Below are positions 2,963 through 49,945 of a stretch of 64,000 nt of DNA, in pieces. The notes under the pieces are model-generated. The model did no database searches. It was not told the DNA's origin and saw nothing but the letters and a program-made list of their open reading frames with translations. The position numbers were made by a program, and so were the translations under genes. The stretch comes from Escherichia coli (GTDB lineage Bacteria > Pseudomonadota > Gammaproteobacteria > Enterobacterales > Enterobacteriaceae). Each line of letters starts with the position of its first letter. Position 1 is the stretch's first letter. The stretch is taken from NCBI RefSeq assembly GCF_044647545.1, contig NZ_CP172818.1; one strand, written 5' to 3'.

Positions 2963-4117
<1,155 letters not shown>

Positions 4118-4123
4118 TTAACA

Positions 4124-4148
4124 GCGGAGATCCGTTAAGGATCTCCGC
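4124..4148 (+). terminator. perfect 10-bp GC-rich inverted repeat (gcggagatcc/ggatctccgc, 5-nt loop) 7 nt after srlD stop; no U-run
   Basis: read directly in sequence; lacks a T-tract so may be an attenuator or processing hairpin rather than an intrinsic terminator. Confidence 0.4.
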
Positions 4149-4162
4149 GAGACTAATAGAAT

Positions 4163-4191
4163 GCCTGATGCGCTACGCTTATCAGGCCTAC
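4163..4191. repeat. REP (repetitive extragenic palindromic) element
   Basis: gcctgatgcgctacgcttatcaggcctac matches the E. coli REP/PU motif (GCCTGATGCG...CTTATCAGGCCTAC). Confidence 0.6.
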
Positions 4192-4222
4192 AGGACTTCC
4201 GCCACTACATTAAGGAGAAGTT

Positions 4223-4582
4223 ATGGTATCCGCACTCATCACCGTCGCCGTTATCGCCTGGTGTGCGCAACTGGCCTTAGGCGGCTGGCAAATTTCTCGT
4301 TTTAACCGTGCCTTCGACACACTATGCCAGCAAGGGCGGGTTGGCGTGGGCCGTTCCAGCGGGCGCTTTAAACCGCGGGTCGTGGTCGCCATCGCCCTGG
4401 ACGATCAGCAGCGCATCGTCGACACCTTGTTTATGAAAGGACTGACCGTCTTCGCCCGACCGCAAAAAATTCCCGCAATTACCGGTATGCATGCGGGTGA
4501 TTTACAGCCCGATGTGATCTTTCCCCATGATCCACTATCACAGAATGCTCTATCATTGGCGCTTAAACTGAAACGTGGATAA
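4223..4582 (+). CDS. gutM: glucitol operon activator
   Basis: 119 aa ORF between srlD and srlR, conserved position. Confidence 0.85.
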   Translation: MVSALITVAVIAWCAQLALGGWQISRFNRAFDTLCQQGRVGVGRSSGRFKPRVVVAIALDDQQRIVDTLFMKGLTVFARPQKIPAITGMHAGDLQPDVIFPHDPLSQNALSLALKLKRG

Positions 4583-4648
4583 TTTCGTTGTGAATGTTAC
4601 TTGCTTGCGAAGTTATCATTTTGAAACCTAAATCAGGTAATCACGCCC

Positions 4649-5422
4649 ATGAAACCTCGTCAGCGTCAGGCCGCCATTCTGGAGTATCTGCAAAAGCAGG
4701 GTAAATGCTCGGTTGAAGAATTGGCGCAATACTTTGACACCACAGGCACAACCATTCGCAAAGATCTGGTCATTCTGGAACATGCCGGAACCGTCATTCG
4801 TACTTATGGCGGAGTGGTGTTGAATAAAGAGGAATCCGATCCGCCTATCGATCATAAAACACTCATCAACACCCACAAGAAAGAGCTGATTGCAGAAGCT
4901 GCCGTTAGTTTTATCCATGATGGCGATTCGATCATTCTTGATGCTGGCAGTACCGTTTTGCAGATGGTTCCCCTGCTCTCGCGCTTTAATAACATCACAG
5001 TGATGACCAACAGCCTGCATATCGTCAATGCGCTATCCGAACTGGATAACGAACAAACTATCCTGATGCCAGGCGGAACATTTCGTAAAAAATCGGCCTC
5101 ATTTCACGGGCAACTGGCAGAGAATGCCTTCGAGCATTTCACCTTCGATAAATTGTTTATGGGCACCGACGGCATCGATCTCAATGCGGGCGTAACCACG
5201 TTCAACGAGGTTTATACCGTCAGTAAGGCAATGTGCAATGCCGCGCGCGAAGTGATTTTGATGGCGGACTCATCAAAGTTTGGCCGTAAAAGCCCCAACG
5301 TAGTTTGCAGTCTTGAAAGCGTCGATAAGCTAATTACCGACGCAGGTATCGATCCAGCGTTTCGTCAGGCGCTGGAAAAGAAAGGGATCGACGTGATCAT
5401 AACCGGAGAGAGCAATGAGTGA
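4649..5422 (+). CDS. srlR: DeoR-family glucitol operon repressor
   Basis: 257 aa ORF with N-terminal DeoR-type HTH ([26 protein letters not shown]). Confidence 0.9.
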
Positions 5423-6380
5423 AGCACTACTGAACGCGGGACGTCAGACGTTAATGCTGGAGTTGCAGGAAGCAAGCCGTTTACCGGAACGTCTGGGCGA
5501 TGATTTTGTTCGCGCCGCCAATATCATCCTGCACTGCGAAGGCAAAGTGGTGGTTTCGGGAATTGGCAAATCGGGCCACATTGGTAAGAAAATCGCCGCA
5601 ACGCTTGCCAGCACCGGCACTCCTGCCTTTTTTGTCCATCCGGCAGAGGCATTGCACGGCGACCTGGGGATGATCGAAAGCCGCGATGTGATGCTGTTTA
5701 TCTCTTACTCCGGTGGCGCGAAGGAACTGGATCTGATTATTCCGCGTCTGGAAGATAAATCTATCGCGCTGCTGGCGATGACCGGCAAACCGACGTCACC
5801 GCTGGGCCTGGCGGCGAAAGCGGTGCTGGATATCTCCGTAGAACGCGAAGCCTGTCCGATGCACCTTGCGCCGACCTCCAGCACCGTGAATACCCTGATG
5901 ATGGGTGACGCGCTGGCGATGGCGGTCATGCAGGCGCGCGGATTTAATGAAGAAGATTTTGCCCGCTCCCACCCTGCTGGAGCACTGGGCGCTCGCTTGC
6001 TGAATAAAGTGCATCATCTGATGCGCCGTGATGACGCTATCCCGCAGGTAGCGTTAACCGCCAGCGTGATGGATGCGATGCTGGAACTCAGCCGCACTGG
6101 TCTGGGGCTGGTGGCGGTATGTGACGCTCAACAACAGGTACAAGGCGTCTTTACCGACGGCGATTTACGTCGCTGGCTGGTTGGCGGCGGTGCACTCACC
6201 ACGCCAGTCAATGAAGCGATGACGGTCGGCGGCACCACGTTGCAATCGCAAAGCCGTGCCATCGACGCCAAAGAAATCCTGATGAAACGCAAAATCACCG
6301 CCGCACCGGTAGTGGATGAAAACGGCAAACTCACCGGCGCAATTAACCTGCAGGATTTCTATCAGGCCGGGATTATTTAA
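5415..6380 (+). CDS. gutQ: D-arabinose 5-phosphate isomerase (SIS + tandem CBS domains)
   Basis: 321 aa ORF with SIS motif [11 protein letters not shown]; overlaps srlR by 8 bp. Confidence 0.9.
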
Positions 6381-7891
6381 TCCTTCAGCCCCAGACGTTT
6401 CGCCAACCGATGCAAGTTGGCGACGTCGGTTTCCAGCATCCGTGCGCTGGCAGCCCAGTTGTGATGATTTTGTGCCAGTGCCTGACGAATGGTTTCACGC
6501 TGGAACGCTTCTGTCGCTTCACGCAGGTTTTGCTTAACGATAGGCACCGCCGCCGCTTCTGGCGGCGGCAACGTCACCTCAGGAAAAGCAAAATGTTGCG
6601 CTTCAAGAATCACTTCATCGCCGCTGCGGGTCGCTCTCGCCAGCACCACCGCCCGATGAATAGCATGTTCCAGTTCGCGCACGTTTCCCGGAAAACTGTA
6701 GTGTTGCAGTAAATTTCGCGCCCCGGCACTTAATACCACGCGGGAGAGCCCCAGCCGCAAACGACACTGCTCGCAGAAATACCCCGCCAGCAGAATGACA
6801 TCATCGCCCCGCTCACGCAGCGGCGGCACCGAAAGTGGGAACACGCTCAGGCGATGAAACAAATCGGCGCGGAATCGCCCTGCCAGCACCTCTTCGCGTA
6901 AGTCGCGGTTAGTCGCCGCCAGCACGCGCACATCGACCCGCAAACTGCGGTCATCGCCAACGCGCTGAATATCGCCATACTGCAACACCCTCAGCAGCTT
7001 GGCCTGCAATGCCAACGACAGCTCGCCGATCTCATCGAGAAACAGTGTGCCGTTATCCGCCATTTCAAACTTCCCGCTGCGGTTACTGATAGCGCCAGTA
7101 AACGCTCCTTTCACATGCCCGAACAACTCACTTTCCGCCACACTTTCCGGCAGTGCGGCACAGTTGAGATAGACCAGCGGATTCACCGCCCTTGGCGAGG
7201 TTTCATGAATCGCTTTCGCCACCAGCTCCTTACCGGTTCCCGTCTCACCGCTGATTAAGACGTTGAGATCGGACGCCGCCACAATCTCAATCTCTTTTTT
7301 CAATTGCGTCATGCCTGGCGACAAGCCAATCATCTGCGTCTGTTTCACCGCTTCAAACGGCGCGGCATCGCCCGGCAGCATATTCTGGCTTTCCAGTTGC
7401 TCAATCAGCAACGCATTGCTTAACGCTCCCGCCGCCAGCGCGGCAATCAGGCGTAACTCTTCGTCGCTGAAAACATCGAACTGATCGGGTTGCATCCCGT
7501 CGAGCGTCAATGCGCCGATCAGGTTTTGCCCGGCAAACAATGGCAGACCAACGCAGGCGTGAACCTTCAGACTCTCCTGCCCGGGAATCAAACCGTCATA
7601 GGGATCGGGCAATTCGCTGTCTGCGGGAAAGCGCACCACGTCCCCGGCGCGGGCAATCGCTTCCAGCCGTGGATGCCCTTCCAGCGCAAAGCGTCTACCG
7701 AGTACATCCTTCGCCAGCCCGTCGATGGCAAGCGGAATAAACTGCCGCGAGTCATAACGTAGCAACGCAGAGGCATCACACTCCAGCACCTGACGCAGCG
7801 TGGTGATCAGGCGCTGAAAACGATCCTGATGACCAATCCCACGCTGCAATTCGATGGCGATATTCGCCAGCACATCAACGGAAAAACTCAT
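6377..7891 (-). CDS. norR: sigma54-dependent NO-responsive transcriptional activator
   Basis: 504 aa ORF with GAF N-terminus, AAA+ domain with Walker A GETGTGKE and GAFTGA motif, C-terminal HTH. Confidence 0.92.
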
Positions 7892-10697: not shown

Positions 10698-12965
10698 TTA
10701 ACGCTTAGTTACGCCACATCCGCCACTATGCAGCATGCAGGAGCGCGCCGCAGCAATAACCCCCTGCCCCAGAGACAAGCCGCCATCACCCGCCGGTAAA
10801 CTCTGCGGAAAGAGTAATGTGAAATCAGCGAGATAATGCGCCAGGCGTGTACGCAGCAATCGGTTATGAATAACCCCACCGCTAAATACCAGCGTAGTGA
10901 TACCGCGCATCGTGGCCTGCTCACGCATCAACGCGGCAAAACCCTGCGCCAGCGCATCATGAAACGCCCACGCGCGTTGATTAACCGGTGCCTGCCAGTT
11001 CAGCCACTGCTGCCAGAAGGTGGCGAGATCCAGTTGATTGTCCACCAGCGGCATCGTCACCGGATGCGTCACTCCCTGGCTCGAAGCCGCCAGCGCCTCG
11101 AGGGCGCAAGCCGCTTCACCTTCATAACTTAACGTGGCTGGCGCACAGCCCAACGCCGCCGCTACGGCATCGAACAAACGTCCACACGATGATGCCAGCG
11201 GCGCGTTAATTCCACGCTCAATGGCCCGCGCCAGCACGCTCCAGTTTTGCTGTTGCACACTTGCCGTTTCAGGGTAATTCTGCCACTCCGGCACAAAGCG
11301 CAGGCACTGCGCCAGCAGGTTACGCCACGGCTGCTTTGCAGCCAAATCGCCCCCCGGAAGCGCCACCGCAGGCAAGCCGCCCAGGTGTTCACATTCGCGA
11401 TAGTTCACCCGCAGGCACTCGCCGCCCCATAAAGCGCCGTTCTCCCCCATACCGATACCGTCGAGCGTCAACGCAATGACATCACCGCCATCCAGCGGCC
11501 AGTGATGTTCTGCCAGACACGCCGCCGCATGAGCATGATGATGCAGCACCGTTTGCGTCGGCAGATTCATTTCGCGCGCCCACTGGCTGGAGACATAGCC
11601 CGGATGCGCGTCATGCACAACGTATTGCGGAGTGAAATCGTAGATGTTTTGCATCAGGCGTAACGCTTCGCGCCACTGCATCTGGATGCCATCGTCACTT
11701 AAATCGCCCAGATGCTGACTCAACACCGCTTGTTTACCGCGCACCAGGCAGAAGGTATTTTTCAGATCCGCGCCGAGACACAGCACAGGCGGAACATTTT
11801 TAAAGCCTGGAGGCAAAGCCAGCGCATCCGGCACATACCCCCGCGAACGGCGCAGCATTTCGCCGTTTTCGCGCACCACCGAATCATCCATCCGCTGCAC
11901 GATGTCGCGGTTATGTATCAAGAATCCGTCGGCAATCCCCTGCAAATCCGCCAGCGCCTGTTCGTTGCTGATAGCTGGTGGTTTACCGCTCAGGTTGCCG
12001 GAGGTCATCACCAGCGGGCATTGCAGTTCCTGTAACAGCAAATGTTGGAGCGGGTTCGCAGGCAACATCACCCCAACTTCGTTAAGGCCAGGGGCGATAT
12101 CATCACAAAGCTCAGGAACGTATTTTTTATCCACCAGAACAATCGGCGCGGCGGGCGTGGTAAGCAACTGGCGCGCAGCGTCAGGTAAACCGTCAGCCAC
12201 TGGCAACATGACCGCCAGCGGTTTCGCCGGGCGATGTTTGCGTGCCCGTAGTGTCGCCACCGCGTTACTGTTACGCGCATCGCAGGCGAGATGAAATCCG
12301 CCAATCCCTTTGATGGCGACAATGTTGCCCATTTTTAACTGTGCGATAGCCGCCTGTAATGCCGCCTCTTGTTCTGCATGTTCACCATGACTTACCCATT
12401 CAAGATGTGGGCCACACTCCGGGCAGGCCACCGGCTGGGCGTGGAAGCGACGATCGAGCGGGTCACAGTACTCTTTGTCACAAGCCGGACACAGCGGAAA
12501 CGCCGCCATCACGGTAAACGGGCGATCGTAAGGCATGGCGCGAATAATGGTGAAACGCGGGCCACAGTGGGTACAGTTGATAAACGGATAACGATAACGC
12601 CGCTCGCCTGGGGTATTCATTTCGGCAAGGCAAGCAGGGCAAGTGGCGGCATCCGGGACAATTTGCGTATTCATAGTGCCGCCTGTGCTCTGGCGGATAG
12701 TGAACTCAGTGGGCAGTTGTGACCAGATAAACGGCTCACGCTCGACGCTATCAATACGCGCCAGCGGCGGGCAGTGCTGATGCAACTGCACAAGAAACGT
12801 TTCCGGGTCTTCCAGCAGCCGGACTTCTACGCCATCGCCGTCATTACAGACATCGCCGTGAAGATTTAATTGCTGTGCCAGTTGCCAGACAAACGGACGA
12901 AAACCGACGCCCTGCACTTTGCCACGAATACGCAGTTGGACACCGCAAGATGTGTTTTTTGCCAT
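10698..12965 (-). CDS. hypF: hydrogenase maturation carbamoyltransferase HypF
   Basis: ORF 10698..13037 trimmed to [25 protein letters not shown] (acylphosphatase domain), followed by two CxxC-x18-CxxC zinc fingers, YrdC-like and Kae1-like domains. Confidence 0.88.
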
Positions 12966-15062: not shown

Positions 15063-17953
<2,891 letters not shown>

Positions 17954-32139: not shown

Positions 32140-32390
32140 GCTCTTGGCCGGGAAAAAGGAAAAAAAGGCGCCCCCCCGAAAAAGCCCCCGGGGGGAAACG
32201 CGGAAAAGAAAAGCGGGGGGGAAACTCCCCCCCCCCACCCGCTGCGCGGCGCGCGGGCAAACACCCGCGAAGGGCGGGGGGAGCCCCCTCCAAAAAAAAA
32301 AAGGGGGGGTTTTAAAATGGGGGGGAAAAAAAAAAAAAAGGAAGGAAAAAAAAACCCCCTAAAAAAAAAACACCAAAAAGGAAAAATTTG
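32140..32390. repeat. low-complexity block dominated by homopolymer runs (A up to 14, C up to 10, G up to 7)
   Basis: read directly; composition atypical for E. coli chromosome; resembles degraded base-calls. Confidence 0.8.
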
Positions 32391-32412
32391 CCGGAGAGTA
32401 TGGCTCTCCGGC
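32390..32412 (-). terminator. intrinsic terminator candidate for ygbA
   Basis: gccggagag-tatgg-ctctccggc hairpin 5 nt after ygbA stop, followed on the minus strand by a T-rich tract. Confidence 0.55.
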
Positions 32413-32416
32413 AGAT

Positions 32417-35615: not shown

Positions 35616-35642
35616 TTCCCGATAGTCTTTTGCTATCGGGAA
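35616..35642 (+). terminator. 10-bp stem hairpin after mutS (ttcccgatag-tcttttg-ctatcgggaa)
   Basis: read in sequence 7 nt after mutS stop; no strong U-run. Confidence 0.45.
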
Positions 35643-36372: not shown

Positions 36373-36398
36373 CTCATGCTTCTTCTGTGAAGCATGAG
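36373..36398. terminator. 10-bp perfect hairpin (ctcatgcttc-ttctgt-gaagcatgag) between convergent pphB and ygbI
   Basis: read in sequence 2 nt after pphB stop. Confidence 0.5.
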
Positions 36399-42424: not shown

Positions 42425-42457
42425 TAAAAAGGTCCGATGGGCATCGGACCTTTTATT
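42425..42457. terminator. bidirectional intrinsic terminator between ygbN and rpoS
   Basis: aaaa-ggtccgat-gggc-atcggacc-ttttatt: 8-bp GC-rich stem flanked by A-run and T-run. Confidence 0.8.
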
Positions 42458-49339: not shown

Positions 49340-49945
49340 TCAGGATCTGATAATATCGTTCTGTCTCAACAGATCTAATAATTGCTGTACCAAATTTGTT
49401 ACTAATTGTTCACCATTGAGATGAATTTCTGCCGATTCAGGCGCTTCGTAAACGGAATCTATTCCCGTAAAGTTGCGCAGTTCACCGGCACGCGCTTTCT
49501 TATATAAGCCTTTTGGATCGCGGGCTTCGCAAATCGCCAGCGGTGTATCGACAAACACTTCGATAAAGCGCCCTTCTCCTACGCGTTCGCGAACCATCTG
49601 GCGTTCGGCGCGGTGTGGCGAGATAAATGCGGTCAGCACCACCAGTCCGGCTTCAACCATCAAATTCGCCACTTCACCGACGCGACGGATATTCTCTTTA
49701 CGATCGGCATCGCTAAAACCGAGATCGCTGCATAATCCGTGGCGAACATTGTCGCCATCCAGCAGATACGTACTGACGCCGAGTTTATGTAACGCCTCCT
49801 CCAGCGCCCCGGCGACCGTTGATTTACCGGACCCGGAGAGGCCGGTAAACCACAGCACTACACCACGATGACCGTGGTGTAGCTCGCGTTGTTGCACAGT
49901 GACTGGATGGCTATGCCAGACGACGTTTTCGTCATGCAGCGCCAT
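49340..49945 (-). CDS. cysC: adenylylsulfate (APS) kinase
   Basis: 201 aa ORF with P-loop GLSGSGKST. Confidence 0.93.

Follow-up and report, generated by a model that had tools for sequence, protein, structure and literature searches.

REP elements inside operons are described as mRNA stabilisers, the closest type being that of malE-malF (Newbury, Higgins et al. 1987, as cited in PMC6061677). Dar & Sorek 2018 (PMC6061677) found that Rho-dependent transcripts end just past stable stem-loops without a U-tract, 24% of them REPs, and that these ends are made by diffuse termination downstream followed by trimming by PNPase or RNase II. The same paper cites Espeli, Moulin & Boccard 2001 for Rho-dependent attenuation associated with BIMEs, which are inverted REP pairs with defined linkers.

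We have analyzed a hairpin followed by a REP unit in the 105-nt spacer between srlD and gutM of the sorbitol (glucitol) operon, located in a stretch of 64,000 nucleotides of Escherichia coli (contig NZ_CP172818.1), hereafter the window. Like the malE-malF stabilisers, this spacer has a transcribed intercistronic REP stem-loop 3' of the higher-expressed genes, no U-tract, and an RNA 3' end just past the stem. Unlike the malE-malF type, which is a REP pair, it combines one REP with an unrelated single-copy hairpin, and here we infer the effect on mRNA half-life. With the protective stem-loops of Dar & Sorek 2018 it shares a U-less stem just 5' of a precise end, a Rho signal downstream and the REP itself, and the REP fits their picture exactly; their cases lie at the end of a transcription unit, whereas this one is internal to an operon, with the next ORF 31 nt away and a modest Rho score of 1.91. 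As in BIME attenuation, a REP-family element stands between co-transcribed genes and read-through may be sensitive to bicyclomycin (BCM), but the window has a single REP, and it is Citrobacter, Klebsiella and Kosakonia that have BIME-like pairs at this place. The G+C-rich hairpin resembles that of an intrinsic terminator in size and energy and differs in having no U-tract, the score in K-12 also falling below the cut-off. The arrangement of hairpin and REP is ordinary, essentially textbook, and the genome is among those studied best. A public supplement already lists the 3' end; none of the papers searched discusses the spacer, and the literature searches returned no locus-specific account of it.

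Features of the srlD-gutM spacer

The features of the spacer and its flanks are listed below by window position, with the genes taken from the ORF list and from the RefSeq annotation.

1433-1996: srlA
1993-2952: srlE
2963-3334: srlB
3338-4117, plus strand: srlD, an ORF for sorbitol dehydrogenase, labelled srlD in identical E. coli genomes
4115-4117, plus strand: TGA stop codon of the srlD ORF (3338-4117)
4124-4148, plus strand: RNA hairpin, arms 4124-4133 and 4139-4148, loop GTTAA at 4134-4138, no U-tract
4129-4132 and 4140-4143: two GATC (Dam) sites, one per arm, read from the sequence; the second is absent in locus L005
4135-4140 and 4157-4162, plus strand: candidate sigma-70 promoter TTAAGG-16-TAGAAT, 8/12 matches, with the -35 in the loop and 3' arm of the hairpin and the -10 in the linker
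4149-4162, plus strand: A/T-rich linker GAGACTAATAGAAT, 14 nt, from hairpin to REP
4163-4191, plus strand: REP unit GCCTGATGCGCTACGCTTATCAGGCCTAC, of the short GCCTGATG... type
4181-4191, plus strand: ATCAGGCCTAC, a natural insertion target of IS621 (IS110 family, bridge RNA), as given in PMC11208160
4192, plus strand: position of the K-12 steady-state RNA 3' end (2828590), the base right after the REP and 5 nt beyond its stem, placed by verified homology mapping
4212-4217 and 4223-4225, plus strand: gutM Shine-Dalgarno AAGGAG and ATG, from the sequence and the ORF
4223-4582: gutM, regulator (activator GutM)
4649-5422: srlR, repressor SrlR
5415-6380: gutQ
6377-7891: norR, convergent

The initial annotation described a perfect 10-bp GC-rich inverted repeat 7 nt after the srlD stop, lacking a U-tract and followed 15 bp later by a REP palindromic unit, and this description holds almost to the base. 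The arms GCGGAGATCC (4124-4133) and GGATCTCCGC (4139-4148) are 100% complementary around a 5-nt loop, with 10/10 pairs, a stem G+C of 7/10 (70%) and an RNA dG of -19.4 kcal/mol. Six nucleotides separate the TGA from the stem, which begins at the seventh; the tail after the hairpin, GAGACTAA, has no T-run, and the REP begins at 4163 after the 14-nt linker, within one base of the distance given. The names srlD and gutM were also correct, as RefSeq annotation puts both genes at the flanks of the spacer. The 501 nt around the element occur with 100% identity in several complete E. coli genomes, including one of an ST648 strain.

Dinucleotide shuffles give a chance expectation of 0.31 perfect stems of at least 10 bp with loops of 3-8 nt per 64 kb, or about 5e-4 when scaled to a 105-nt spacer, so that a perfect 10-bp hairpin within this spacer is beyond chance. 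The fold of 4105-4230 has a z of -4.66, and the hairpin and REP stems both persist when folded jointly. A 41-nt query recovered the hairpin in 5408 of 5426 E. coli genomes, at a median of one place per genome and always at srlD. The hairpin sequence has no REP motif and shows neither the dispersal nor the consensus of a REP; because it is single-copy, the hairpin is not a REP and its pairing with the REP is not a BIME, which also disposes of the hairpin as a dispersed repeat or BIME part. Elsewhere in the window there are five further perfect hairpins of at least 10 bp (32389-32413, 35616-35642, 36373-36398, 42427-42454 and 49858-49882), the one at 42427 having 12 bp, against a whole-window chance expectation of 0.31 perfect hairpins. 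The heptamer TTAAGGA occurs twice in the spacer, at 4135-4141 (hairpin loop and 3' arm) and at 4210-4216 (gutM Shine-Dalgarno), and its ARGGA core resembles CsrA-type sites.

The REP unit matches, at 29/29 positions, the query GCCTGATGCGCTACGCTTATCAGGCCTACG, which the paper on the IS621 bridge RNA (PMC11208160) uses as one of its three 'known REP sequences', and both the head pattern GCC(G/T)GATG and the tail pattern CTTATC(A/C)GGCCTAC are present. Its stem pairs 4163-4170 with 4180-4187, plus an inner 2 bp, with a dG of -13.2 kcal/mol. A 33-nt query found at least 40 places per genome in 5425 of 5426 E. coli genomes (at least 40 in 4865 records), and identical copies occur at other loci, for example near yahH. 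The unit is extragenic, between the srlD stop at 4117 and the gutM start at 4223, and is transcribed in K-12, given the Term-seq 3' end just past it. All the properties of REP membership that we assessed (palindrome and consensus, dispersal, extragenic and transcribed position) were thus found. The RefSeq annotation of K-12 carries no repeat_region features at all, so the missing REP label there is uninformative. Other REP-like motifs in the window lie at 11823-11832 (minus strand) and 17348-17359 (plus strand) (GCCGGATGCG; TATCCGGCTTAC).

Other element classes were considered and rejected. A BIME would need an inverted pair, and the spacer has only one REP. An intrinsic terminator would need a T-run, which follows neither the hairpin nor the REP, whose tail is CTACAGGA; the terminator scan of 3300-4700 found no terminator-like sites. 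Rfam gave only chance hits below threshold, with naRNA4 at 23.4 bits against a gathering score of 59.5 and NiCo-AnGGAG at 24.9 against 64.5, and the naRNA4 score merely reflects REP-likeness.

Transcript ends and coverage in K-12

Adams et al. 2021 (PMC7815308) analyzed uninduced K-12 MG1655 cells in LB at OD 0.4 by Term-seq and DirectRNA-seq. A Term-seq 3' end at 2828590 on the plus strand, 3-5 nt past the REP stem, is given in their supplementary files 1 and 3, with a mean of 4666 reads and the flank ...CATCAGGCATAC/A. Of the three growth conditions, a single one has this end, and the lists give no Term-seq 3' end following the 10-bp hairpin. Its intrinsic-terminator score of 1.51 is under the cut-off of 3 and makes it non-intrinsic (PMC7815308). 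Another Term-seq 3' end of the same study lies inside srlA, at 2826058 (window ~1659), with the flank ...CCGGTAACCCTGTTTCCCGTTACC...GCACGTTTGTCTTT.

DirectRNA-seq coverage in 800-nt windows falls from 585 upstream to 197 downstream without BCM, a drop of about 3-fold, and is 309 upstream and 199 downstream with BCM (PMC7815308). Coverage across the junction is therefore not uniform, in line with the step that the initial annotation had anticipated. The downstream window extends as far as the Rho site of srlR, so the drop cannot be pinned to the spacer. The Rho score at 2828590, just below the authors' 2-fold guide, comes with the entry 'significant Rho termination region: Yes', and the peak of the flagged region is in srlR. 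This stronger Rho region peaks at 2829346 (window ~4948) with a score of 3.7, where coverage without BCM drops from 697 to 76 (PMC7815308), and without induction most transcripts apparently end short of gutQ. The locus does not appear in the TERMITe supplements, and transcriptome papers that name the operon gave no per-gene values from which a srlD/gutM step could be read. A 3'-UTR-derived sRNA or Hfq partner was also considered and set aside, there being no such srlD or gutM entries in two RIL-seq-related supplements.

The best explanation of the element, to which we assign a probability of about 0.6, is that the two transcribed stem-loops block 3'-to-5' exonucleases and set the stable end of the srlAEBD mRNA after Rho-linked termination further downstream. 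The spacer would be transcribed within the operon and both stem-loops would fold, and transcripts running into gutM and srlR would be ended diffusely by Rho, or cleaved. Trimming in the 3'-to-5' direction by PNPase or RNase II would then halt where the enzymes first meet a stable duplex, at the REP, with the 10-bp hairpin as a second barrier behind it. The result would be a stable srlAEBD mRNA with its 3' end a few bases past the REP, and srlAEBD structural genes that outlast and outnumber gutM, srlR and gutQ.

The initial annotation had proposed that such combinations often act as mRNA stabilisers or partial terminators setting differential expression of structural and regulatory genes; this interpretation gains support from the REP search and from the K-12 coverage step, with the mapped end at the REP and not at the hairpin. 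A stable U-less stem-loop does stand 3' of the better-expressed cistrons, and the steady-state 3' end is a few nucleotides past the stem in the case of the REP; none is reported at the 10-bp hairpin, so the contribution of the latter is putative. Also to be set against the exonuclease barrier are the 800-nt windows and uninduced cells behind the 585/197 step, with the downstream window reaching into srlR, and the listing of the 2828590 end in a single growth condition. The element possibly also overlaps a weak internal promoter of gutM, and such a promoter could coexist with the stabilising role.

The junction in Escherichia and other genera

Twelve sequences were compared within Escherichia: the window, K-12, O157:H7, W, three other E. 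coli and five Escherichia species representatives. Seven pairs of the hairpin stem are invariant and three vary on one side only (closing G-C to G.U, C-G to U.G and U-A to U.G), so that 100% of the stem cells remain paired. On the minus strand, or in a DNA dyad, the same changes are A.C mismatches, and minus-strand folds lose more energy. Positions in the loop and linker vary freely; the linker has a 1-nt deletion in K-12 and W, and reads TAGAAT or TAAAAT. The Escherichia sequences contain no compensatory double substitutions and hence no covariation that would prove the structure, and the one-sided G.U changes give directional support, short of proof, for an RNA structure on the plus strand. 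Directly 3' of the srlD stop, position 4119 is T in the window (TGATTAACAG) and C in the 11 other Escherichia sequences.

The K-12-type REP is two substitutions (T to C and C to A) off the REP consensus, which replace a G.U by a G-C pair and lengthen the stem, making it more stable at -18.2 against -13.2 kcal/mol. K-12 reads ATCAGGCATAC at the equivalent of 4181-4191 and has thereby lost the IS621 target. In E. coli XD35 (L074, NZ_CP089142.1, 121-266), an IS5-like ISEc68 is inserted at the loop TTAA, splitting the hairpin and parting srlD from gutM, which amounts to a natural knockout of the element.

A GutM probe returned 70 loci from species-representative genomes, and 69 srlD-gutM spacers, including those of the window and K-12, were extracted, 68 of them distinct. 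Judged by reading the sequences, the hairpin plus REP architecture is confined to Escherichia among the 69 spacers. All 69 nevertheless have a stable hairpin, the best single one ranging from -11.4 to -30.2 kcal/mol, and in most relatives the strongest hairpin begins 0-13 nt past the srlD stop. The 68 distinct spacers have a median fold z of -3.75 and dG/nt of -0.42, while the neighbouring gutM-srlR spacer, taken for comparison, has a median z of -1.28 and dG/nt of -0.21, both sets being uncorrected for phylogeny, which weakens them as support for a stabiliser. A T-run follows the hairpin in only 5 of the 68 spacers. The gutM Shine-Dalgarno is of the AGGAG type in nearly all 69 extracted spacers, with a few degenerate exceptions such as L032, L037 and L030.

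What forms the hairpin differs between genera. Single REPs are found in several Citrobacter, Salmonella diarizonae and Kluyvera, and inverted BIME-like REP pairs in most Citrobacter, Klebsiella, Lelliottia and some Enterobacter, as well as in Kosakonia. Tandem BIME-like arrays of alternating inverted REPs extend to 612 nt in Kosakonia cowanii (L053) and 550 nt in Phytobacter ursingii (L066), and several Enterobacter have CCCTCTCCC..GGGAGAGGG elements. Trabulsiella, Pluralibacter, Cedecea and some Kosakonia have short G+C hairpins unlike known repeat types, in spacers of 41-60 nt. With hairpins in 69/69 spacers, a T-run in 5/68 and spacers of other genera that do not resemble the Escherichia sequence, the conserved feature after srlD is a hairpin without a U-tract, neither a particular sequence nor an intrinsic terminator. 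Two loci stand apart. L002 (DXKH01000030.1, a 'Citrobacter sp.' MAG) is 100% identical to the window across srlD-gutM, and its MAG has a second, Citrobacter-type copy (L039), so L002 is probably a mis-binned E. coli contig. The enterobacterial GutM fragment of L070 (a 'Flavobacterium psychrophilum' MAG), at 76% identity, is probably contamination.

The one mildly interesting result is evolutionary: Enterobacteriaceae retain a post-srlD hairpin, but again and again with a new sequence, in many cases that of a mobile palindrome. We propose tentatively, as a possibility that we do not favour, that the srlD-gutM junction acts as an obligatory, sequence-independent 'valve' across the family. The U-less hairpin would be kept and its identity repeatedly replaced by short GC-rich hairpins, box-C-like elements, single REPs, BIME pairs or long BIME arrays, with mobile palindromes recruited and then selected for RNA stability, and would set the ratio of the structural genes to the regulators GutM and SrlR; in Escherichia it may share its sequence with a weak promoter of gutM whose -35 falls in the loop of the hairpin. 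The drift of the K-12 REP off consensus towards a stronger stem fits such a valve.

Rival readings and wider meaning

Several other explanations bear on the same observations. A weak constitutive sigma-70 promoter for gutM-srlR-gutQ, with the palindromes incidental or modulating, is a somewhat doubtful proposal that is compatible with mRNA stabilisation. An RpoD holoenzyme gSELEX peak lies in the spacer, with an inferred unit gutM-srlRQ (PMC3946193), but the peak is coarse and is given without hexamers. From the filter that Adams et al. applied it follows that a dRNA-seq TSS lies 21-200 nt before the 3' end, and TTAAGG-16-TAGAAT is the only candidate with at least 8/12 matches in 3950-4175; it falls below the scan threshold of 9/12, its spacing is 15 nt in K-12, from which the data come, and its predicted start at ~4169 is only ~23 nt from the mapped 3' end. 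A -10-like hexamer, TAGAAT or TAAAAT, is however present in 12/12 Escherichia sequences. We consider it rather unlikely that the elements are neutral passengers, with the REP as a selfish or mobile insertion, the hairpin as a tolerated leftover and the 3' end as a harmless by-product. The REP is indeed dispersed and contains a target of IS621, palindromic repeats tend to accumulate in this spacer, as the long Kosakonia and Phytobacter arrays illustrate, and the hairpin loop of XD35 has received an IS5-like element; REPs and BIMEs insert readily in permissive spacers, so that their presence alone is no proof of selection, which tells against the stabiliser too, as does the lack of true covariation. 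Yet the genera that are free of REPs keep short GC-rich hairpins even where the spacer is only 41-60 nt, every stem change in Escherichia preserves pairing, 5408/5426 genomes retain the hairpin, and the K-12 REP has drifted to a stronger stem.

Direct attenuation, in which the hairpin or REP pauses or releases RNA polymerase (as a Rho-dependent BIME-type element or a U-less hairpin) and makes the end without later trimming, is again an improbable account. The Rho score of 1.91 at the 3' end is flagged as significant, a 1.55-fold drop remains with BCM (309 vs 199), hairpins with a T-run occur in 5/68 relatives, and Espeli et al. 2001 is cited in Dar & Sorek for direct roles of REPs in Rho termination (PMC6061677). 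The spacer, however, holds a single REP and no BIME pair, the 31 nt between the 3' end and the strongly SD-led gutM ATG leave little untranslated RNA for Rho, the C/G enrichment just downstream is mild (1.26), and the Rho signal reaches its peak only in srlR, ~750 nt downstream. A stem 6 nt past the srlD stop could instead hinder the terminating ribosome and lower SrlD yield, a brake on translation termination that we regard as quite improbable. Liang, Rudd and Deutscher reportedly showed in 2015 that REPs within 15 nt of stop codons lower protein yield, and the hairpin, like the strongest hairpin of most relatives at 0-13 nt, begins within such a distance; but the effect is for REPs, the REP here is 45 nt from the stop, and SrlD, as a structural enzyme, ought to be made in large amounts on induction. 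Least credible by far is a role at the DNA level, with the palindrome as the operator of SrlR, GutM or another dimeric regulator, or as a Dam-sensitive site. The perfect 10-bp dyad, its 5-bp spacer and the two GATC sites are what such a site might look like, but L005 lacks one of the GATC sites, no other genus that retains gutM and srlR has the sequence in its extracted spacers, the literature searches found no binding data, and natural variants break the DNA dyad symmetry while keeping plus-strand RNA pairing, on which ground we rejected it.

The element has little importance beyond the sorbitol operon. If the exonuclease barrier is confirmed, a single promoter would give high sorbitol transport and dehydrogenase together with low, buffered amounts of the GutM activator, the SrlR repressor and GutQ. 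The cross-genus pattern would be a natural example of REP-type repeats co-opted as protectors of RNA 3' ends, with the structure kept and the sequence replaced, and the hairpin plus REP could serve as a compact natural part to tune gene ratios in synthetic operons.

Two observations concern the neighbouring intergenic regions. The gutM-srlR spacer (4583-4648) has weak structure, and the Escherichia and Citrobacter copies that were inspected share most of its sequence (TTTCGTTGTGAATG..GCTTGCGAA.TTATCATTT); a promoter-like TTGGCG-16-GATAAT lies where gutM ends (4556-4583); together these suggest a conserved srlR promoter or operator. An RpoN holoenzyme gSELEX peak lies between srlB and srlD (window ~3330), with an inferred unit srlD-gutM-srlR-gutQ (PMC8743547).
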